DNA from: Patescibacteria group bacterium
Lineage (GTDB): Bacteria > Patescibacteriota > Minisyncoccia > Phycocordibacterales > XYD1-FULL-46-19
Direction: 5' to 3'
DNA: 52,042 nucleotides
Assembly (NCBI GenBank): GCA_048617235.1
Contig: JBMCHT010000001.1
Location: 1 to 52,042 of the forward strand
The notes beneath the pieces are model-generated. The model saw only the letters and a program-made list of their open reading frames with translations, had not been told where the DNA came from and searched no databases. A program made the translations under genes and the position numbers. Of the stretch, positions 42,882 to 52,042 are shown piece after piece (positions within the stretch are counted from its first letter, which is position 1; every line of letters starts with the position of its first letter).

Positions 42882-43009
42882 ATAAGAATTATAGCATTAA
42901 ATTACTTGTTGTTAGCTAAGAATAAAATCAAGGGAATATTTCTAAACCTTGATTAAATTTTTATATTTAAACGTTTTTAAAGATTATTAACAATGAAATT
43001 TATTAACTA

Positions 43010-43037
43010 TTGCCAACAGTTTTTTGTTGTTTAAAAT
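43010..43037 (+). promoter_or_regulatory. Candidate promoter for the Gly-rich peptide
   Basis: TTGCCA-N16-TAAAAT with TG extension, about 70 nt upstream of ATG 43107. Confidence 0.45.
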
Positions 43038-43106
43038 GGTTATTAGATAAAACAAGGTCTTTCATAAGGAAAGATCAAAACTCGGATCAGAAAGGAGGTG
43101 AAAATA

Positions 43107-43217
43107 ATGGGAAAGAAAGGTTCAGGCGGCCACGGAGGTGGTCGACACGGCTCTGGCGGTCAACGCGGAGGCGGAGGAGGTGGCACAGGTGGAGCTACCG
43201 GCGTACGAGGCAAATAG
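43107..43217 (+). CDS. 36-aa Gly-rich basic peptide MGKKGSGGHGGGRHGSGGQRGGGGGGTGGATGVRGK
   Basis: SD CAGAAAGGAGGTGA-N5-ATG; 20 of 36 residues are Gly; own terminator. Confidence 0.75.
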   Translation: MGKKGSGGHGGGRHGSGGQRGGGGGGTGGATGVRGK

Positions 43218-43246
43218 ACTCGCTTTCCACTCATTCTTGACCGTAT

Positions 43247-43283
43247 GTCTGGTGTGTATTTCATCTACATACCAGACTTTTTT
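43247..43283 (+). terminator. Intrinsic terminator after the Gly-rich peptide
   Basis: GTCTGGTGTGTA / TACATACCAGAC stem (one G-U pair) followed by T6. Confidence 0.8.
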
Positions 43284-43299
43284 ATGTTAAAATAAATTT

Positions 43300-44577
43300 A
43301 TGGAAAAACATATAATTTCACAAAAAAGGCTTAAAAACGGATCAAATTTGATTCATATAAAAATATCCAATTGGCCACTTTCTTTAATTTCTGTTTGGTT
43401 TAAAACAGGATCAAGGTATGACCCAATAAAAAAGGAAGGTTTAGCTCATTTTGTAGAACATTTATTTTTTAAAAAAACCAAAAATTACAATACTCCTCAA
43501 AAAAAATTTAAAGAAATAGAGTCTTTAGGAATAGAGTTAAATGCTTACACCACTAAAGAAAATACTGTTTATTATCATTCACAAATTAAAGAAAGTACGG
43601 AAAAATCAATCTCTTTATTGTTAGATTCTTTAAAAAACCATTTAATTACTGCTAAAGATGTAGAATCTGAAAAAAAAGTTATCTTAGATGAATTAAATAG
43701 GGATTACCAAGATTCAGATAGTTATATATATACTTTAGCCGAGGCTAATTTATGGCCTCAAGATCCAATCGGTCGAAACATTCTCGGGACTAAAGATAGT
43801 ATAAATAAAATTACTTTTAAAGATGTTAAAGATTTTATTAAAAATAATTATAGTCAAGCCCCCGATTTTCTATTTATAGGAGATATGGAATTAACTGAAG
43901 TAATTAATATATTAAATAAAGAAAATTTAATATTTAAAAATCCAACTAAAGAAAAAATAAATGAAACAGTATCTTCACCTAAATTAATTTTAATAAACAA
44001 AAGACCGGAAAATCACTTGACTATCAGTATAAGCTTTCAAACTGTTTCTATTAAAAACACTTCGGAAAATATTAAATTACATTTATTGATGGCTTATTTA
44101 GCTAATGGTTGGATATCTAAATTAATTGATTCTTTAAGAGTTAAACATAATTTATCTTATTGGGTTAATGGGCAAATGGTTGCCTTAAGTGATAGAGGTT
44201 ATATACAATTTGTTTTTAATGTTGATAAAAAAGAATTGAATCGATCTTTAAAATTAATTTTTAGTGAAATTAAAAAACTAAAACAAATAAATATCGTAAA
44301 AGATGACATTGAAGCTCATAAAAGTTCTTTAATTTCTTCTATTAGACATACCAACATAACCCCATCTGCTTTAATGTGGTGGTATGGATGGGATATGTCT
44401 TTAAATGGAAAAAGTGAAACTCCATCATCTTATATAAATAAAATTAAAAATTTAGATTTTTCAGATATCAAAGAAGTTGCCAAAAAATATTTTAAAAAAG
44501 ACAATTTATCTATCAGTATTATAGGAAATGTTTCAAAAAAAGAAGTAGGGGATATTATTGCAAAAATTAAATTTTAA
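43300..44577 (+). CDS. M16 (pitrilysin-family) zinc peptidase
   Basis: GSRYD....GLAHFVEHL (HxxEH), NAYT and C-domain LR...NLSY; no signal peptide. Confidence 0.92.
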   Translation: MEKHIISQKRLKNGSNLIHIKISNWPLSLISVWFKTGSRYDPIKKEGLAHFVEHLFFKKTKNYNTPQKKFKEIESLGIELNAYTTKENTVYYHSQIKESTEKSISLLLDSLKNHLITAKDVESEKKVILDELNRDYQDSDSYIYTLAEANLWPQDPIGRNILGTKDSINKITFKDVKDFIKNNYSQAPDFLFIGDMELTEVINILNKENLIFKNPTKEKINETVSSPKLILINKRPENHLTISISFQTVSIKNTSENIKLHLLMAYLANGWISKLIDSLRVKHNLSYWVNGQMVALSDRGYIQFVFNVDKKELNRSLKLIFSEIKKLKQINIVKDDIEAHKSSLISSIRHTNITPSALMWWYGWDMSLNGKSETPSSYINKIKNLDFSDIKEVAKKYFKKDNLSISIIGNVSKKEVGDIIAKIKF

Positions 44578-44578
44578 A

Positions 44579-44864
44579 ATGAAATTCTCAAGATCTAATT
44601 TTAAAAAAAATAAAAAAATTTTTAAATCCTTTAGTTGATTCAGTAGTTAAAAAATATATTAAGGATTATAAAATAAAACATCAAACAGATTTAACTTATA
44701 AATTCAATGAACTAGAACAAGCTGGCTGGAAATATTTAGATTTTGCTCTAATAAAATATCTTGAACGAATTGAAGATGAAAATAAAGATTATTTATTTAC
44801 TCAATATTTTACTTGGTTTATAAGGCAGGGAGTTCACGAGTACACAATAATTGAAGTAGAATAA
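44579..44864 (+). pseudogene. Stand-alone sigma-70 region-2-like mini-protein (94 aa), broken by +1 A in the A8 run at 44603-44610
   Basis: Removing one A gives MKFSRSNFKKIKKFLNPLVDSVVKKY...FNELEQAGWKYLDFALIKYLERIEDENKDYLFTQYFTWFIRQGVHEY..., matching the sigma region-2 pattern LV.S.AKKY...DL.Q.G..GL..A..KF...FSTYATWWIRQAI. Confidence 0.7.
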
Positions 44865-44914
44865 AAAAAAATAATTAAAATAATATTAGATTTTTTGTAT
44901 ATTTTATATAAAGT

Positions 44915-44923
44915 TTATCCACA
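44915..44923 (+). promoter_or_regulatory. Consensus DnaA box TTATCCACA inside the duplicated leader (copy at 50510-50518, minus strand)
   Basis: Exact 9-mer match to the DnaA-box consensus; function here unproven. Confidence 0.45.
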
Positions 44924-44996
44924 CCTTTTCTTGCTTTTTTTTTACTTTTACTAAGATGGAAATAGAAACTGCATTCCAACCAAAAAAGGAAAAAGA

Positions 44997-45116
44997 ATGT
45001 TTAATCCTTATTTACCCGATCCTCCGGGTATGGATTTGGAAAAATGCCTGGGAGAAGGATCCGCCTTGCCCCAAGAAACTCATTCCGATCTCAATCATCT
45101 GACAGATGATTTGTGA
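44997..45116 (+). CDS. Possible 39-aa ORF within the duplicated leader (MFNPYLPDPPGMDLEKCLGEGSALPQETHSDLNHLTDDL); second copy at 50317-50436 (-)
   Basis: AAAGGA upstream of the ATG, ends TGA TAA; may instead be non-coding structured RNA. Confidence 0.3.
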   Translation: MFNPYLPDPPGMDLEKCLGEGSALPQETHSDLNHLTDDL

Positions 45117-45145
45117 TAAATTCACACAGAAAGGAGGTGAAAATT

Positions 45146-45232
45146 ATGAGTGACCCTAAGGAGCAGCGTTGGGACAACGATTGGGATGACGGAGCATCCC
45201 AAGATTGCGGAAACCTCCCCTCGGGAAGTTAA
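45146..45232 (+). CDS. 28-aa acidic Trp-containing peptide MSDPKEQRWDNDWDDGASQDCGNLPSGS
   Basis: SD CAGAAAGGAGGTGA-N5-ATG; own terminator; directly upstream of the M16 and S9 peptidases. Confidence 0.72.
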   Translation: MSDPKEQRWDNDWDDGASQDCGNLPSGS

Positions 45233-45252
45233 CTGACACTAAACGCACACTC

Positions 45253-45289
45253 AACCCCGAATCTTCAAAAGATTCGGGGTTACCTTTTT
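45253..45289 (+). terminator. Intrinsic terminator after the 28-aa peptide
   Basis: AACCCCGAATCTT-CAA-AAGATTCGGGGTT, a perfect 13-bp stem, then ACCTTTTT. Confidence 0.82.
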
Positions 45290-45323
45290 AAGTAAAATAT
45301 AATAATATTGTTAATATGTTTAT

Positions 45324-46511
45324 ATGTTAAAAGATAAAATCTCATTTTATTCACAAATTAATTCCAGATTTGGACTTCAATCTTTGGAAATCTGGATTCC
45401 TTATGGTTTTCGTCATGAAAACTCAACTGAAGAAGGTTATACTCATTTAATAGAACATTTAATGATGAGTGGATCCAAAACTTATCCGACAGAAAAAGAA
45501 TTAGCGAATGTTATAGATAAAACCGGGGCTATAATTAATGCCACAACCTCTACAGAATATATGAGAATTTATAGTTTATTTATACCAGAACATTTAAAAT
45601 TAATAACCTCGGTACTTTTTGATAAAATATTTAATCCAATTATAAATCAAAAGAAGATTGAAAAAGAAATTAAAATATTAGAATCCGAAGCCGAACACAA
45701 TAAGTCTAATCCTTTTACTCAAATTCAAAGATTAGCCACCGCTCAAATTTTAAATTCTAGTGGAATTAAAACTGTTATTAATGGAGAAAAACCAAAAAAT
45801 ACACCCACAGCGGAAATTCTTAAAGATTTCTATTATAAAAGATTAACTAATTCTAAGATTATTGTCTCAACAGCTGGACCATTAAAAAAAGACAAGGTAA
45901 TCACAGAAATCAATCATTCTTTGAAAGATTTAAACACTTATTCAAAAATAAAAATTCCGAATTCTTTTAATCTAGAAAAAATACCAACAAAAATAGTGAA
46001 TAATAAAAACAAACACTTGGCTATTTCCTTTAAAACTCCTTCGGCCGTTAACGATCTCAATTATGTTTTTAAAATAATAGGGGATTATTTAACTGGAGGA
46101 TATAATTCGGAGTTATATCAAAAATTAAGACTAAAAGAAGAACTGATATATTCTGCCACTGCTAAAAATGTATTATTTTCAGATATAGGAATTTTTTCTA
46201 TTTATACTCATTCTCATAATATTAACAAAACTATCGATAAAATATTTGAAATATTAAATAACCTAACCGAAAATCCTCAAAAAATAGATTGGAATACTAT
46301 AAAAGATCGCTTAATTCTAAAACAAAAACAAAATAGCTTATCTTCACCTTTAATAAATAGCTATCATAATAGTCATTCTTTCATTACCACCGGAGAATTT
46401 ATTACTTTAAAACAAGAAGAAGAAAAAATAAAGCGAATTAATTTAAAAGATATAAGAAAAGTTTTAAAATATTTAAAACTAAATAAAGCAGTTATAACTA
46501 CAATCAAATAA
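45324..46511 (+). CDS. M16 (pitrilysin-family) zinc peptidase
   Basis: G.THLIEHLM..GSKTYP (HxxEH), NATTS and S.LYQKLR...LIYS. Confidence 0.9.
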   Translation: MLKDKISFYSQINSRFGLQSLEIWIPYGFRHENSTEEGYTHLIEHLMMSGSKTYPTEKELANVIDKTGAIINATTSTEYMRIYSLFIPEHLKLITSVLFDKIFNPIINQKKIEKEIKILESEAEHNKSNPFTQIQRLATAQILNSSGIKTVINGEKPKNTPTAEILKDFYYKRLTNSKIIVSTAGPLKKDKVITEINHSLKDLNTYSKIKIPNSFNLEKIPTKIVNNKNKHLAISFKTPSAVNDLNYVFKIIGDYLTGGYNSELYQKLRLKEELIYSATAKNVLFSDIGIFSIYTHSHNINKTIDKIFEILNNLTENPQKIDWNTIKDRLILKQKQNSLSSPLINSYHNSHSFITTGEFITLKQEEEKIKRINLKDIRKVLKYLKLNKAVITTIK

Positions 46512-46523
46512 AATAATAATTAA

Positions 46524-48299
46524 ATGCATAAGTGCCAACCAACAGATTTTTTAAATATATCATCAGTTAGAGATTTTTCTTTAAATTGTAATGAAAAACA
46601 CATTGCTTGTATAATCAAAGAAAAAACAAAGCAACGACTTTTTATATATTCTATAGAAAATAAAACTCTTAAAAAACCAACAAAAGAATTCGATACTGTC
46701 TCCTTTGTTAAATTTTCTCCCTCTGATAAAAACCTGCTCTTAGTTAAAGCAGCTAGAATTAATGATCAATATTTAAGTTTCTTTTTTTTAAATATAAAAA
46801 ATAAAACTCAAAAAAAATTACCGGAACCACCTGATACTCTTATTCGCTTTGGAAATTGGTCACCCCAAGGAGATAAAATAACTTATGCTATAAATAAAAA
46901 AAATGAAAAAGATTTTAAAATAAAGATTTTCAATTTAAAAACCAATACAACAAGGGATGTTTTTTCTTTAAAAACTTCTTGTTCTGTTCCGGGTTTTTCT
47001 CCCAAAGAATCTTTTCTAATAATACTGGAACATATTTCCTCAATTAAAACTAATTGTTATTTATTGAATTTAAAAACCAATAAGATTAAAAAAATAATCA
47101 CAAATAACAAAAGCCAAGATTTTATTATAGCCGGAATTAAATGGTTATCAGATGAATCTGGTTTTTATTATATATCGGATAAAAATTGCGATAGAAATTC
47201 TTTATATTTTTTTGATTTAGTAAAAAATAAAAGTAAATTAATTACTGAAACACCCGGAGATTTGCAAAATATACATAAATCAAATACTGAAAAATTTTTA
47301 TTTTTAGCTATTAATGAAGGAGGTAAAATATTATTGTACAAATTTAATATAAAAAACAATAAATTATCTAAAAAAATAGAATTTCCAAAAGGTTCTATTG
47401 ATTCTTTTTTACTTTCTAAAGACAATCTAGCAATAATGACTTGCAGTAGTCCAACTCAGGGTTCAAGTTTATATTCTTATAATAAATCCTTTAAACAATT
47501 AATTGCTTCTAAACAAAAAATACCACCTAAAAACTTAGTTAGTCCCATCTCTTTTTATTATAAATCTTTTGATAATTTAAAAATACAAAACTTTCTTTTT
47601 TTGCCTAAAAATAAAAAAATAAAATATCCATTGTTTATATTTTTACATGGTGGCCCAGCCTCTTTATATGTTCCTAATTATAATTCTTTAATTCAATTTT
47701 TAGTAAATAAAGGCTATGCGGTGGCGGCTCCAAATATAAGAGGAAGTTCCGGTTATGGAAAAAAATTTAAAACTTTAGATGATAAAGAAAAACGTTATCA
47801 TGCTTTGAAAGACGTTATTTATTTACAAAGATTTTTAAAAAAGGAATATAATCAAATAAATACCGACAAAACTATACTGTGTGGAGAATCTTATGGTGGA
47901 TTTTTAACTATGTTATTGTTAGCTTTATATCCTCAAAAATGGTTAAAAGGTATTTCTATTTCAGGTATATCTAATTTTATTACTTATTTAGAAAATATCC
48001 CTGAATGGAGAAGGCCTGTCAGAGAAGAAGAATATGGATCATTAAAACACAATAAAGTCTTATTAAAAGCCTTATCTCCTATAAATAACAAAGAAACTAT
48101 TCAATCACCTTTATTATTAATCCATGGTAAAAATGATACTCAAGTACCATTAGACCAAACATTAGATATGTATAAAGCCCTTAAAAAACTAAATAAAAAA
48201 GTAGAAAAAATTATTTATACAGATGAAGGACATATTATATATAAAAAGAAAAACCGTCTAAATTTATATAAAAAAATTATTACTTTTATAGAAAATTAA
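46524..48299 (+). CDS. S9 family (prolyl oligopeptidase / acylaminoacyl peptidase-like) serine peptidase
   Basis: N-terminal beta-propeller repeats (FSP, WSP), HGGP, N.RGSSGYG, GESYGG nucleophile, HG.ND..V and EGH. Confidence 0.93.
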   Translation: MHKCQPTDFLNISSVRDFSLNCNEKHIACIIKEKTKQRLFIYSIENKTLKKPTKEFDTVSFVKFSPSDKNLLLVKAARINDQYLSFFFLNIKNKTQKKLPEPPDTLIRFGNWSPQGDKITYAINKKNEKDFKIKIFNLKTNTTRDVFSLKTSCSVPGFSPKESFLIILEHISSIKTNCYLLNLKTNKIKKIITNNKSQDFIIAGIKWLSDESGFYYISDKNCDRNSLYFFDLVKNKSKLITETPGDLQNIHKSNTEKFLFLAINEGGKILLYKFNIKNNKLSKKIEFPKGSIDSFLLSKDNLAIMTCSSPTQGSSLYSYNKSFKQLIASKQKIPPKNLVSPISFYYKSFDNLKIQNFLFLPKNKKIKYPLFIFLHGGPASLYVPNYNSLIQFLVNKGYAVAAPNIRGSSGYGKKFKTLDDKEKRYHALKDVIYLQRFLKKEYNQINTDKTILCGESYGGFLTMLLLALYPQKWLKGISISGISNFITYLENIPEWRRPVREEEYGSLKHNKVLLKALSPINNKETIQSPLLLIHGKNDTQVPLDQTLDMYKALKKLNKKVEKIIYTDEGHIIYKKKNRLNLYKKIITFIEN

Positions 48300-48312
48300 T
48301 TAACATTTCATT

Positions 48313-48420
48313 ATGTTTTTAAACACCTGGCACAATTTACTAAAAATGGAAAAACACGATCTTGATTGGCATCAAGAAGATTTAAAAACAGAATTAGTGG
48401 AATACAAAGAAGCTACCGGA
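48313..48420 (+). pseudogene. 5' fragment of a hypothetical gene, fused out of frame to the ribA fragment
   Basis: MFLNTWHNLLKMEKHDLDWHQEDLKTELVEYKEATG looks protein-like, then runs into ribA sequence in another frame and stops at 48468. Confidence 0.45.
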
Positions 48421-48662
48421 GGCCCTTGGGTTTCCTCCAGAGATGAGAGATTACACATGTGTTCGTGACATGTTGGCTGATTTAAAAGTTAAAAGTATTA
48501 GACTTCTAACTAATAATCCTGATAAAATTAATAAATTAACAGAATTAGGAGTTATTGTTCAAGGTGTCGAATCAATAGAGGTGTTACCTAATTTACTCAA
48601 TAAAAGGTATTTAAGAACAAAAAAAAGATAAAATGAATCATAAATTGAGAAAAATAAAATGA
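48419..48662 (+). pseudogene. ribA: GTP cyclohydrolase II, C-terminal fragment
   Basis: EALGFPPEMRDY...IRLLTNNPDK...N.RYL.TKK. Removing one A from the A8 run near 48619-48626 restores the usual DKMNH ending and an ATGA overlap with the next gene. The N-terminal catalytic part is absent. Confidence 0.8.
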
Positions 48663-49192
48663 AAATTGCAATCGGAACAACCTCAGAAAATAAGACAGCT
48701 ATAGTAAAAGCTTTTTTTGGAGATATTAAAAATTTTATGATCGTTCCATGTGATGTGAGCTCTGGTGTAACTGATCAGCCATTAGATGAATTTACAACAA
48801 GAGAAGGCGCTATAAATCGGGCAAAAAATGCTTTCGAGATGACACTTGAGACTGATATAGATTTTTCACTTGGACTTGAGGGGGGGCTTGTGTTAATTGA
48901 TAACACTTATTTTTTGTTATGTGTAGCTGTAATTACTGATAACTCTGGAGTTGACATAGTTGGTATGAGCGATACCCTTCCTCTACCTCAATATGTGTCT
49001 GACCAGATTGCGAATGGTAAAGAGTTTGGTGTATCAATTAGAGAGTTCCAAGAGTCTTTAATAGCTAATATTGACGATAATATTAAGAACTGGATTGATG
49101 AATTAATTAGCCGTCGCTCTAGTTTTCTAATGGCAATCGGATCTGCTTATATTCAATATCTAAAATTAGTAGTAGATCGCACAAAAAAATAG
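48659..49192 (+). CDS. Non-canonical purine NTP phosphatase (YjjX / DUF84 family)
   Basis: IAIGT...K, SSGV.DQP, GA.NRA and GLEGG. Confidence 0.85.
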   Translation: MKIAIGTTSENKTAIVKAFFGDIKNFMIVPCDVSSGVTDQPLDEFTTREGAINRAKNAFEMTLETDIDFSLGLEGGLVLIDNTYFLLCVAVITDNSGVDIVGMSDTLPLPQYVSDQIANGKEFGVSIREFQESLIANIDDNIKNWIDELISRRSSFLMAIGSAYIQYLKLVVDRTKK

Positions 49193-49220
49193 ACATTACC
49201 AAGTAATTGGTAATGTCTAT
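49189..49220. terminator. 14-bp perfect hairpin at the end of the YjjX-like gene
   Basis: ATAGACATTACCAA-GTAA-TTGGTAATGTCTAT. Confidence 0.65.
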
Positions 49221-49222
49221 GC

Positions 49223-49315
49223 TATTGTGAAATCTTCGAGGATTGTTCTGGAGGATGCCCACTACTATGGACGGTGTATCCGCCGGACAAAATGATTGTA
49301 GGATGGTCGAAATAA
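49223..49315 (+). pseudogene. 3' remnant of a radical SAM/SPASM-domain gene
   Basis: Start-less frame YCEIFEDCSGGCPLLWTVYPPDKMIVGWSK*; C-x5-C-x-G-G-C-P matches the end of the SPASM Cx2Cx5Cx3C motif; followed by its own terminator. Confidence 0.65.
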
Positions 49316-49327
49316 GAAACCAAACCA

Positions 49328-49368
49328 AACCCCTTGGCGCAATATAATGTACCAAGGGGTTATCTTTT
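49328..49368 (+). terminator. Intrinsic terminator after the SPASM remnant
   Basis: AACCCCTTGG...CCAAGGGGTT stem, then ATCTTTT. Confidence 0.7.
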
Positions 49369-49412
49369 GTTAAAATAATTTTATAATTATTAATTATTCA
49401 TATCTATAAAAC

Positions 49413-50045
49413 ATGTCTACTATACTGATAAAATTCAAATTCGATATTGAATCTGAAATCCGAAGAGTAAAAGAAACTTTGGATAACTTAGGGTGGCTCA
49501 CAAAAAATAACTACAGATTCCTTTTACCCTCCAACATAAAAAAAGACGCCAGCACTGATGATATTAAACAGGCAATAGAAAACGAGTATAATTTACAAAT
49601 TTATCAGATTGCTGAAAAAGCCATTTTAAAATCATGGGAAGGAAACAATAAATTATTAAAAAAAATTAACCAGAAATTAAAGAATTCGTATCAACTAGAC
49701 GAAGTAGAAGTAATATTAACTGCATATGGAACACAAGGCAGTTATTCGACACCAAATTCAATCATTATAAATATTTCTACTGGTACTCCTCCGGAATTTT
49801 TAATCAAAACAGTAATCCACGAATCTTTACATTTAATGATCGAGCATCTCATTAAGAGATATTCTGTCGAACATTGGGTCAAAGAACACATTGTGGACTT
49901 AATAATGGATTTAGAATATCAATCACGTTTTAAGATGCAGTCTGTGCCTGATTGGGTTTTAGAAATAGACCCAATATTCAAAAAAGATTACCCAAATATA
50001 GATATTATTACAGAGAAAGTTGGAAAAATCTTCCCCAAGAAGTGA
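49413..50045 (+). CDS. Hypothetical protein with HExxH zinc-metallopeptidase-like motif
   Basis: YGTQGSY...IIIN...VIHESLH with downstream KE.IVD as candidate third ligand. Confidence 0.7.
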   Translation: MSTILIKFKFDIESEIRRVKETLDNLGWLTKNNYRFLLPSNIKKDASTDDIKQAIENEYNLQIYQIAEKAILKSWEGNNKLLKKINQKLKNSYQLDEVEVILTAYGTQGSYSTPNSIIINISTGTPPEFLIKTVIHESLHLMIEHLIKRYSVEHWVKEHIVDLIMDLEYQSRFKMQSVPDWVLEIDPIFKKDYPNIDIITEKVGKIFPKK

Positions 50046-50066
50046 ATTGAGTCAGATTAAATTATT

Positions 50067-50104
50067 AAAAAATTCCGGTATGCCTAAAATAGGCATACCA
50101 GAGT
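50067..50104 (-). terminator. Intrinsic terminator after the Cys-rich peptide (probably bidirectional)
   Basis: GGTATGCCTA-AAA-TAGGCATACC 10-bp stem (50077-50099) with a T-run on the minus strand. Confidence 0.8.
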
Positions 50105-50125
50105 CACTCCTGTCAAAAACTTCAG

Positions 50126-50287
50126 TCATTGACCGGAACAATCGCAGTTGCATTCACATGCACCCCAACCGCCGTCGCAGTTGCCAGTGATACAGTCTCC
50201 ATCCCCTTGGATTTGAGGAGAGAAGCCACGAACATTTCTCTGACAAGAAATCCCCGTCACTTTAAGAAATTTTACGAACTCTTCCAT
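50126..50287 (-). CDS. 53-aa Cys-rich peptide MEEFVKFLKVTGISCQRNVRGFSPQIQGDGDCITGNCDGGWGACECNCDCSGQ
   Basis: SD CAGAAAGGAGGTGA-N5-ATG places the start at 50287, not the track's 50320; 7 Cys including CxCxCxC; own terminator. Confidence 0.78.
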   Translation of the reverse strand: MEEFVKFLKVTGISCQRNVRGFSPQIQGDGDCITGNCDGGWGACECNCDCSGQ

Positions 50288-50292
50288 TATCA

Positions 50293-50568
50293 TCACCTCC
50301 TTTCTGTGTGAATTTATCACAAATCATCTGTCAGATGATTGAGATCGGAATGAGTTTCTTGGGGCAAGGCGGATCCTTCTCCCAGGCATTTTTCCAAATC
50401 CATACCCGGAGGATCGGGTAAATAAGGATTAAACATTCTTTTTCCTTTTTTGGTTGGAATGCAGTTTCTATTTCCATCTTAGTAAAAGTAAAAAAAAAGC
50501 AAGAAAAGGTGTGGATAAACTTTATATAAAATATACAAAAAATCTAATATTATTTTAATTATTTTTTT
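50293..50568 (-). repeat. 276-bp leader, copy 2 (inverted duplicate of 44865-45140)
   Basis: Reverse complement matches copy 1 by eye over the full length. Confidence 0.95.
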
Positions 50569-50762
50569 ATTTACTAATTCTTTATTGTTTATAAAATTTT
50601 AAGAATATGATAAAGACATAACATTATTTTACAATAATCAACATTTATAATCTAGTTTTTTATTAAATAATAAAAAACTAGACAATCACAACTTTATCTC
50701 TAAAATAAATGACAAAAGCTTAAAAATGTTATAGAATAAAAGAGTAGCCGAAGGTTAAGACT

Positions 50763-51458
50763 ATGACAGATATAGCTATTCTTAAATATTTTGTTCCCAT
50801 TTACCAAATAACCATTTGGCCGGTTTGCCGTCTTTTATTGTTTATTTTTGGTAATTTAAAAGTTTCCGGAATAGAAAACCTTAAAGATATACAATCCGGA
50901 GTTATTTTGGCGGCTAATCATACAACCGCCATGGATCCGGTAATAATCCGAACAGCTATGCCTTTTTGGGGTTATCATAAGGCTACTTATGCTGTTTCTT
51001 TAACTAAAGAAAATTACGATACCTTTTGGGGTCGTTTATTGTATGGTGGTTGGTTTTTTAAAATAATTGGAGCTTGGCCGGCCTTTAGAAAAACAGGGGA
51101 TTACAAAAAAAGTTTTAAATACCATATATACCTGCTAAATAACAAAAAAGCTGTTATAATTTTCCCAGAAGGGGGGAGGAATAAATTAAGTAAACCTATG
51201 GACAAAAAACCGAAGCCGGGATTGATTCATTTATCTCTTTTAACTAATACTCCTATTATTCCCATATCCATTAAAGGTCAAGCTGGTTTAAATCCTTTAT
51301 CCTTTTTTTTAAGAAAACATAGAATGTCTGTTCATTTTCACCAACCAATTAAACCGGAAGATTTAAAAGAAAAATATCCTGATTTAAAAGCTGAAGAAAA
51401 AAGTGATGGAAGTATTCGAGCGGTTAAAGAAATTATGGATAATATTTATAAAATATAA
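50763..51458 (+). CDS. Lysophospholipid acyltransferase (PlsC family)
   Basis: ANHTTAMD (HX4D), IFPEGGR and PIIPISI. Confidence 0.9.
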   Translation: MTDIAILKYFVPIYQITIWPVCRLLLFIFGNLKVSGIENLKDIQSGVILAANHTTAMDPVIIRTAMPFWGYHKATYAVSLTKENYDTFWGRLLYGGWFFKIIGAWPAFRKTGDYKKSFKYHIYLLNNKKAVIIFPEGGRNKLSKPMDKKPKPGLIHLSLLTNTPIIPISIKGQAGLNPLSFFLRKHRMSVHFHQPIKPEDLKEKYPDLKAEEKSDGSIRAVKEIMDNIYKI

Positions 51459-51463
51459 AAAGC

Positions 51464-52042
51464 ATGATTTATTTAAAATCTATACAATTAAGAGATGGTG
51501 ATTTATTTTGCTCAGATATTAAAGCAAACGATATTGATAATCTTAATAAAGTTTTTCAACTTCGACATGAAATTTTCGTTAAAAATTTAAAATGGGTAAA
51601 AAACAATGATGATAAATTAGAATCAGATAAATATGATAAAAATTCAATAATTTTTGCTGTATTTTTAAATAAAGAAATATTGGGAACCGTAAGAGTGATA
51701 TTGCCTACAGAAAAATTTATGTTAGAAGATGATTTTCATTATCTTTTAGATGAAAATCATACTATAATTAAAAATAAAGCGATAGAAATATCTAGATTGG
51801 GAGTAAAATCAGAAATAAAAGACAACCCTAAACTTAAAAAAAGAGTCGTCATGCTTTTATATAAAACATTATATAAATGGGCAAGTGAAAATGATATACG
51901 TTATTTTTATTTTGTGTCTACTGAAAAATTTTTAAATTCCTTAGACAGTAGGTTTTCTATACCTATACACTTATTTAAAAAAATAGCATCTGCTCCAAAT
52001 TGTCCTAAATATAGAGCAGCTTTAATAGATTTAAAAGAATCT
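51464..52042 (+). CDS. LuxI-like acyl-homoserine-lactone synthase / N-acyl amino acid synthase (GNAT fold), 3'-truncated by window edge
   Basis: 193 open codons to the window end: FQLRHEIFVKNLKW...LESDKYD...GTVRVILPT..FML...F..LL...IEISRLGV, containing the R,F,W,E,D,D,R,E,S,R pattern conserved in LuxI-family enzymes. Missing from the ORF track because there is no stop in the window. Confidence 0.78.
   Translation, partial: MIYLKSIQLRDGDLFCSDIKANDIDNLNKVFQLRHEIFVKNLKWVKNNDDKLESDKYDKNSIIFAVFLNKEILGTVRVILPTEKFMLEDDFHYLLDENHTIIKNKAIEISRLGVKSEIKDNPKLKKRVVMLLYKTLYKWASENDIRYFYFVSTEKFLNSLDSRFSIPIHLFKKIASAPNCPKYRAALIDLKES

Follow-up and report, generated by a model that had tools for sequence, protein, structure and literature searches.

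The window analysed here is a stretch of 52,042 nucleotides (nt), i.e., the first 52 kb of contig C1 in the genome of a Patescibacteria group bacterium (GCA_048617235.1; G000 below), which amounts to 642,865 bases in four contigs and is rated 100% complete with 1.14% contamination. Between 42 and 53 kb, the GC content is 0.22-0.33 versus a genome median of 0.36, and this low-GC island, one of three in the genome, carries the locus in question, a candidate system for a peptide made by the ribosome and modified after translation (RiPP). The locus comprises three cassettes, each with a small open reading frame (ORF), a common start motif and a terminator, together with genes for two M16 peptidases, an S9 peptidase and an HExxH protein, and the 3′ remnant of a gene for a radical S-adenosylmethionine (rSAM) maturase with a SPASM domain (Table 1). 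A preliminary description, made from the letters of the window, had read these genes as a partly decayed RiPP-like locus, a reading that comparison with relatives supports for cassette 3, that stays plausible where cassette 2 and the S9 gene are concerned, and for which cassette 1 finds no comparative support. Handles beginning with G denote genomes (G000 being the one studied) and those beginning with L denote fetched loci; the Pfam scan covered nine ORFs of the region.

Each of the three small ORFs, which encode 36, 28 and 53 amino acids (aa), starts as CAGAAAGGAGGTGA-N5-ATG and is followed by a GC-rich hairpin with a stem of 12-13 bp and a T run, just as had been described. Both GAAAGGAGGTGANNNNNATG and the full GAAAGGAGGTGA-N5-ATG arrangement occur three times in the window and in none of 100 shuffles, and seven terminator-like sites were found, compared with 2.9 ± 1.9 in shuffles. 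The peptidases named in the preliminary description were borne out by Pfam, with an M16 gene directly after each of the first two ORFs and the S9 gene between the cassettes. The two M16 proteins carry the HxxEH zinc motif and match PF00675 and PF05193 at 74-110 bits, above the cut-offs, and the S9 protein matches PF00326 at 136.6 bits, likewise above the cut-off, with its GxSxG motif appearing as GESYGG in the translation. The three small ORFs are all still open, as are the genes for the HExxH protein, the two M16 peptidases and the S9 peptidase.

Table 1. Features of the peptide locus (positions within the 52,042-nt window)
Feature	Position	Strand	Description
Cassette 1 (GAAAGGAGGTGA, 5 nt, peptide 1)	43090-43217 (ORF 43107-43217)	+	36 aa, Gly-rich, basic
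Cassette 1 terminator	43247-43277	+	12-bp stem
M16 peptidase a	43300-44577	+	425 aa; HFVEH; assigned by Pfam
Sigma-70 region-2-like frame	44583-44861	+	93 codons
Inverted repeat, left arm	44853-45148	+	AT-rich upstream part, leader of ~190 nt with a 39-codon ORF (44997-45116), GAAAGGAGGTGA
Peptide 2	45146-45232	+	28 aa, acidic, NDWDD motif
Cassette 2 terminator	45253-45281	+	13-bp stem
M16 peptidase b	45324-46511	+	395 aa; HLIEH; assigned by Pfam
S9 (prolyl-oligopeptidase family) serine peptidase	46524-48299	+	591 aa; assigned by Pfam
GTP cyclohydrolase II 3′ remnant (ribA)	48443-48631	+	PF00925 at E 1e-10, covering positions 122-162 of the 165 in the profile
NTPase_I-T (DUF84) gene	48659-49192	+	assigned by Pfam
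rSAM-SPASM maturase 3′ remnant	49214-49316	+	33 codons; frame ends with a SPASM-type Cys pattern
HExxH protein	49413-50045	+	210 aa
Cassette 3 terminator	50074-50102	-	13-bp stem
Peptide 3	50126-50287	-	53 aa, 7 Cys
Inverted repeat, right arm	50285-50580	-	identical leader, drives peptide 3

An alignment of the HExxH protein, scanned against one genome per species, gave 66 loci, most of which are titled Patescibacteria, Parcubacteria, Paceibacterota or 'Candidatus Saccharibacteria'. In L049, L050 and L053, which are among the closest, an rSAM-SPASM gene is followed by a gene for a 210-aa HExxH protein and then by a convergent 53-aa ORF led by the same motif, and the window is syntenic with these loci, with the remnant standing in the place of the enzyme gene. 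The small ORFs of the three loci are orthologues of peptide 3, with 68-72% identity and 29 of 53 columns invariant, and combine a conserved N-terminal part with a CxC-rich core; in the window as in the orthologous loci, the enzyme or its remnant adjoins a short precursor whose leader is conserved and whose core is modifiable. In all six pairs formed by peptide 3 and its three orthologues, the proportion of nonsynonymous differences (pN) is 0.15-0.22 and that of synonymous differences (pS) is 0.77-0.95; therefore, the ORF evolves as a protein under purifying selection. A four-peptide profile searched against 1.84 billion proteins returned three cluster representatives only. From these features, cassette 3 is predicted to encode a genuine RiPP precursor.

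The small ORFs form GC-rich islands (0.5-0.6) within AT-rich surroundings, and the leader together with peptide 2 folds more stably than its shuffles (z = -4.0), both of which would also be expected if the islands were structured non-coding RNAs instead of peptide genes. However, the coding-type evolution of peptide 3, with pS saturated relative to pN, and the fixed distance between motif and ATG make this reading very improbable, and Rfam, run over the whole window, returned two tRNAs only.

The intact rSAM enzymes of L049 and L050 are 345-346 aa long. In G000, the maturase gene is reduced to its last 29-33 codons, and 24 of 29 residues (83%) of the remnant match the C-termini of these two enzymes; a hairpin follows at about 49340-49362. 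The SPASM remnant of the preliminary description is real at this position, whereas the frame at 48443-48631 is a remnant of GTP cyclohydrolase II and not of a SPASM protein. As had been stated, no intact rSAM enzyme (CxxxCxxC) with a SPASM domain is present in the window, which holds the 33-codon remnant only. The two places in which a look for an intact enzyme had been proposed gave opposite answers: it is present in the orthologous loci L049, L050 and L053, as well as in the relatives G140 and G071, whereas a search for one in trans gave no matches to PF04055 (radical SAM) or PF13186 (SPASM) across the 643 kb of G000. Since the rSAM gene is truncated and no other was found, peptide 3 would no longer be cross-linkable in this organism. 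In addition, G000 peptide 3 reads GDGDC where its relatives have GDCDC, i.e., one otherwise invariant core Cys is replaced. The comparison supports the reading that cassette 3 forms, together with the HExxH gene and the remnant of the SPASM gene, the relic of a conserved module. Adjoining the peptide-3 module in L049 and L050, we note a second, larger rSAM-SPASM gene (L049:8963-10433 and L050:8309-9631; 435-440 aa; PF13186 34 bits), which in L049 is followed by a 42-aa CxC-rich ORF.

The interpretation that we favour, with a probability of about 0.7, is that the region is a low-GC accessory island carrying a partly decayed RiPP-type maturation system of sporadic occurrence in Parcubacteria/Paceibacterota. 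When intact, such a system would consist of a short precursor, with its own start motif and terminator, beside an rSAM/SPASM enzyme of ~345 aa and the 210-aa HExxH protein, sometimes with an M16 peptidase or a membrane protein of the MMPL type as well. In the precursor, the N-terminal part would be conserved and the C-terminal core rich in Cys and Asp. The rSAM enzyme would cross-link the Cys-rich core, the HExxH protein and M16 or S9 peptidases would trim or further modify the peptide, and the product would then be exported. Homology, synteny, the purifying selection on peptide 3 and the truncated state of the enzyme gene are established by the comparison; we infer this chemistry, the pairing of proteases with substrates and any activity that the locus may retain. 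The window would then be an example of cluster decay in a 643-kb genome, in which the loss of the enzyme came first, while the genes for the peptides and proteases have stayed open.

The open state of the small ORFs and of the HExxH, M16 and S9 genes could also mean that a protease-only system is at work, in which the M16, S9 and HExxH proteins trim peptides 1-3 into signalling or antimicrobial peptides and the rSAM enzyme is dispensable. Peptide-peptidase pairs free of rSAM do recur (L150/L151 for M16; L068, L191 and L192 for S9), many HExxH loci are without rSAM, and the 276-nt exact repeat described below is either recent or maintained. However, the core of peptide 3 is conserved alongside rSAM in all three orthologous loci, the invariant core Cys is lost in G000, and the remnants of ribA, the sigma-like frame and rSAM point to decay. 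We consider a working protease-only system possible, and clearly less probable than a decayed maturation system.

Beyond the orthologous loci, related arrangements were found in several relatives. G140 has an rSAM gene, a peptide led by GAAAGGAGGTGA-N5-ATG and an HExxH gene, in this order; G071 has M16, peptide, HExxH, rSAM and MMPL genes; G024 has rSAM, peptide and M16; and G242 has the same three, with both enzymes split. More Cys/Asp-rich small ORFs lie near the HExxH genes of L069, L074 and L077. The G071 and G140 enzymes score at best 36-61 bits against the NCBIfam maturase models (PapB, SCIFF, StsB, PqqE, mycofactocin and others), the cut-offs of which are 180-650, and the generic SPASM domain alone passes its cut-off (30.4 bits vs. 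27). For the L050 enzyme, SkfB is the sole sequence match among solved structures (E 1e-5). These loci would represent a family of rSAM-SPASM peptide clusters in Parcubacteria-type bacteria, with CxC/Asp-rich cores and a confidently folded but unannotated HExxH partner. To our knowledge, bacteria of this type are usually reported with little or no secondary metabolism. The proposed system is directly testable by heterologous co-expression of the three small genes of an intact relative. The rSAM gene of G024 shows a frame change at an A7 run (L040:11440-11460), owing either to an error in the assembly or to decay of this copy as well.

Cassette 2 and the S9 gene are plausible members of such a RiPP-like system. 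The nearest relatives of the second M16 peptidase (M16b) are the M16 proteins of G024 (31% identity, E 2e-44), whose gene comes after an rSAM gene and a peptide, and of G020 (29%). A metagenome scan with M16b and these two proteins gave 10 loci; within the M16b clade, one locus is the G024 contig, and an HExxH gene adjoins the M16 gene in L147, L149, L152 and L153. In the near-identical L150 and L151, a 27-aa acidic ORF with GAAAGGAGGTGA and NDWDD lies directly upstream of the M16 gene, and the third relative of peptide 2 is found in L177, within a genome that also holds the L050 module. Homologues of the S9 peptidase are rare (3 of 60 relatives), and a small motif-led ORF is convergent to the S9 gene in two of these three as well as in L068. 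The look for small ORFs beside homologous peptidases that the preliminary description had proposed is therefore positive for the M16b clade (L150/L151) and for S9, and negative for the type of the first M16 peptidase (M16a), as given below. A search with M16b across 300 genomes of the order returned 21-28% identity only; these hits were taken as the common M16 and are uninformative on the clade. An inactive/active M16 pair in relatives was also considered and rejected, the upstream ORFs of ~450 aa being other genes (glycyl-tRNA synthetase in L054; in G001, the homologue of a 658-aa protein). Next to motif-led small ORFs, L177 (377-1303) and L191 (145-1086) encode proteins of ~310 aa with N-termini that are alike by eye, which may constitute a further accessory family.

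Several observations weigh against the interpretation as a partly decayed RiPP-type system. At cassette 1, M16a groups with the common M16 of the lineage: in BLASTP it is 24-30% identical (E 1e-31 to 1e-49) to the HFLEH M16 proteins of relatives, and this common M16 is carried by 26 of 40 relatives and is without an upstream small ORF in 24 of 25 loci, the exception being G024 with a small ORF led by a Shine-Dalgarno (SD) sequence. Peptide 1 has no Pfam match and no homologue, tblastn against all fetched loci giving Gly-rich low-complexity matches only; the best of these, in L080, was rejected as a relative because the stretch in which it sits is G-rich and part of a larger frame. By these comparisons, cassette 1 would count as unsupported. 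The peptide-2 family amounts to three short sequences, and its profile found no match in 60 relatives. As to the enzyme, rSAM homologues occur in just 4 of 301 genomes of the order, and no cut-off of an NCBIfam RiPP-maturase model is reached. The link between HExxH and rSAM genes is not strict either: rSAM is visible in 20 of the 66 HExxH loci, two of the 20 being the query loci, and is missing from the fetched stretch in 46 of 66, many of the stretches being short. In L051, L052 and L055, which are close homologues, both rSAM and a peptide are missing, and motif-led small ORFs occur at 0.12 per kb within 1.5 kb of HExxH genes versus 0.07 further off. Because there are rSAM-free HExxH loci, the HExxH protein may have a peptide-independent role. 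Moreover, the assembly unitigs are compatible with either orientation of the segment between the repeat arms, and the chemistry, expression and product of the system are putative.

The grouping of M16a with the common M16 and the lack of relatives of peptide 1 would equally suit general scavenging peptidases that have unrelated, highly expressed small proteins as neighbours, the motif then being a general small-ORF feature of the lineage. Consistent with this, five of the eight motif sites in the genome lie in unrelated contexts, and in five relatives the motif is also found ahead of zinc-ribbon and Gly/Ser/His-rich small ORFs. However, scavenging would leave unexplained the synteny of peptide 3, the HExxH gene and rSAM, and the M16b clade, which adjoins an rSAM, peptide or HExxH gene in L146, L147, L149, L150/L151, L152 and L153. 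The S9 peptidase, for its part, is accessory (3/60 relatives) and peptide-linked in two of three cases. We regard this alternative as unlikely, and the decayed maturation system as the better account of the locus.

The HExxH protein is present as the preliminary description had it, and its HExxH motif is invariant in 55 members; its match in Pfam is, however, a sub-threshold SprT-like similarity, and its role as a peptidase is putative. Across the 55 full-length members, H136, E137, H140, K157 and E158 are invariant, with the Lys-Glu pair 17-18 residues downstream of the motif. The AlphaFold model of the protein has a predicted local distance difference test score (pLDDT) of 96.6. In a wide structural search (VIA), the top matches are the zincin-type hydrolases YbeY, Wss1, M1, M30 and thermolysin at Z 5-7.2, and the HExxH domain of ChlB is also among the fold matches (Z 6.1). 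Foldseek with this model found nothing in the PDB at E <= 0.001, the HExxH profile had no match among PDB sequences, and at E <= 0.01 no NCBIfam family was matched by the window's protein or by that of G071. All of the 63 database homologues are unnamed or 'hypothetical'. The protein is thus predicted to belong to an unannotated zincin-like family, by fold matches that include no significant Foldseek hit, and may be either a peptidase or an alpha-ketoglutarate-dependent hydroxylase. Beside the HExxH gene of L068, a protein of ~170 aa resembling a transglutaminase core is encoded (L068:2928-3443; PF01841, whose cut-off it just reaches with 23 bits), and an ORF that resembles it by eye stands beside the HExxH gene of L152 (L152:916-1422).

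Three known systems invite comparison. Thioether RiPPs, i.e., the ranthipeptides/SCIFF with PapB-type maturases and the sactipeptides subtilosin and sporulation killing factor, likewise have a short precursor with a Cys-rich core beside an rSAM-SPASM enzyme of ~345 aa, and the subtilosin cluster also has M16-type peptidases (AlbE/AlbF). The PapB model aligns over its full length with the G071 enzyme, but at 43.5 bits vs. a cut-off of 340. In contrast to the thioether RiPPs, the precursors here have CxCxC/Asp-rich cores and gave no match to any peptide family of NCBIfam or Pfam; the unannotated 210-aa HExxH protein is their constant partner, and the enzyme is lost in the window. The biosynthesis of pyrroloquinoline quinone (PQQ) uses the same trio of a small peptide (PqqA), an rSAM-SPASM enzyme (PqqE) and an M16 peptidase (PqqF). 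However, the PqqE model gives 31.8 bits (cut-off 381) and the PqqF model 40 and 28 bits (cut-off 320), none of pqqB, pqqC and pqqD was found in the loci read, and the peptides are unlike PqqA in length and make-up.

The third comparison concerns the alpha-ketoglutarate-dependent HExxH enzymes of RiPP pathways (ChlBH, BpmH, PflC/PosC), in which a zincin-like HExxH protein likewise stands beside, or is fused to, an rSAM enzyme. The ChlB match (Z 6.1) is no better than those to YbeY, Wss1 or the M1 peptidase, and neither the window's protein nor that of G071 matched the family model of these hydroxylases, which we take to be IPR026337 / TIGR04267, in NCBIfam at E <= 0.01. According to the portion of PMC12636437 available to us, the residues that known RiPP HExxH enzymes hydroxylate are Asp, His, Gln or Asn, and the present cores are rich in Asp and Asn. 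A literature search, with supplementary files outside its scope, found no paper on rSAM-SPASM/HExxH peptide clusters in Patescibacteria, and the sections of PMC11613949 at hand report no biosynthetic gene clusters in its Patescibacteria metagenome-assembled genomes. The cluster type is predicted to be a variant form of the rSAM-SPASM peptide systems, one whose partner family is unannotated.

The start motif raises a question on translation, namely a textbook SD sequence that stands only before small ORFs despite a 16S rRNA seemingly unable to pair with it. The genome-wide count of motif-led small ORFs that the preliminary description had asked for gave eight sites for GAAAGGAGGTGA in G000, seven of them 4-5 nt before ORFs of 28-87 aa and the eighth overlapping the GTG start of a 91-aa ORF; in five relatives, AAAGGAGGTGA has 18 sites, mostly ahead of small ORFs, versus 3 for the reversed control. 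Ordinary genes here are without an SD: of 386 long ORFs, 1.8% have GGAGG upstream, and G makes up 4-17% at each position from -22 to -1 of long ORFs. We also note that, in the 22 nt ahead of 490 long ORFs, the A+T content is 75-90% and TAAT, TATA and AATA are enriched, and such A+T-rich upstream regions would fit leaderless or SD-free initiation.

The sole 16S gene of the genome (C4:44181-46483, L161) contains, near its 3′ end, a group-I-intron-like insertion with an internal ORF, which matches RF00028 at 43.5 and 26.8 bits, both under the Rfam cut-off of 50. Downstream of the insertion, helix 45 with a GGAA loop can be recognized by eye, followed by the tail GGAACTATTCC without CCUCC, i.e., the motif is not complementary to this tail as read by eye. 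Among 30 relatives (L193-L222), helix 45 is followed by no CCTCC in 27, with tails of the GGAATATTTCAA type, two tails are interrupted and one is canonical (L216, G011), which may come from a foreign contig. Because the 16S rRNA of the order is without CCUCC, the earlier idea that the motif works as a strong SD and brings about abundant translation is open to doubt. In the part of PMC9297842 that we could consult, 16S tails without CCUCC are described for part of Parcubacteria; its authors detected CCUCC in 48% and think that SD helices do not form there. The tails found here agree with this published loss of the anti-SD in a Parcubacteria subgroup, whereas the retention of a canonical SD before a few small ORFs is not mentioned in that part, and the literature searched on SD sequences in Patescibacteria and the candidate phyla radiation held nothing on it either.

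A tentative explanation, which we hold to be improbable on balance though worth stating, is that the perfect 12-nt SD GAAAGGAGGTGA is selectively kept, at a constant spacing, before a few small-peptide genes, RiPP precursors included, as a dedicated expression signal whose reader is not the 16S tail. This reader might be a factor that binds RNA, a different rRNA contact or, as the boldest option, ribosomes belonging to another (host) cell. If this is true, GAAAGGAGGTGA marks a small regulon whose peptides are processed or secreted. Two candidates were rejected: a site bearing CACCTCCTT at C2:114556, considered as an anti-SD RNA, falls within an ORF of 434 aa, by eye a histidyl-tRNA synthetase, and a search for CsrA as the motif reader gave nothing above the cut-off in the genome.

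The preliminary description had noted an identical start in three unrelated ORFs. While CAGAAAGGAGGTGA is indeed common to all three, ORFs 2 and 3 share it through an overlooked inverted repeat of 296 nt; peptides 2 and 3 have identical starts because both sit at the inner ends of this repeat. Its exact core spans 276 nt (44865-45140 equals 50568-50293), and the inner edge of the exact part is the last base of GAAAGGAGGTGA. The genome holds these two copies only. For the 39- and 48-codon ORFs of the repeat, the fetched loci held no match with an E value under 0.06, a search with the repeat DNA in 60 relatives gave short chance matches only, and comparison of the leader with the upstream regions of L049, L050 and L053 found nothing conserved beyond the motif.

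Contigs that are public for the probable source run served to check the assembly, and none of them joins across the repeat. The repeat is a separate unitig with about twice the depth of its neighbours, and the inner segment (5.1-5.2 kb) is one unbroken unitig that spans the junction at the truncated enzyme; since a single unitig covers the segment, this junction is real. We note at the truncation junction a perfect palindrome of 14 bp around a 4-nt loop (49189-49220), exactly between the stop codon of the NTPase gene and the rSAM remnant.

The exact inverted repeat of 276 nt at its borders, its orientation left open by the unitig graph, the double depth of the repeat unitig and the low GC content all suggest that the segment could be an invertible or mobile element, e.g., a composite-transposon-like unit or a phase switch. 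However, no transposase or recombinase is found among the nine Pfam-scanned ORFs, no direct duplication is seen by eye at the outer edges, the genome has just two copies of the repeat, and the same inward-pointing leader lies on both arms, so that an inversion would swap the outer context only. Such an element is a rather remote prospect compared with the decayed RiPP-type island proposed above.

Between the two groups of cassettes, the NTPase_I-T gene and the ribA remnant have a GC content of 0.31-0.42, versus 0.2-0.3 in the flanks, and look like a piece of ordinary genome wedged in. The sigma region-2 mini-gene of the preliminary description does show 37% identity over 68 aa with region 2 of the genome's own sigma factor; however, the frame has no ATG, GTG or TTG start and no Pfam match, and is probably a remnant. 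The other two low-GC islands of G000 (0.22-0.29) are at C3:117-126 kb and C4:8-20 kb. Finally, the stretch beyond the peptide locus (50763-52042) carries an acyltransferase gene (PF01553) followed directly by a gene for an autoinducer-synthase/FeeM-like N-acyl amino acid synthase (PF00765 at 44.9 bits, cut-off 24), which runs past the end of the window; the two genes are possibly an acyl-signal or lipid pair.

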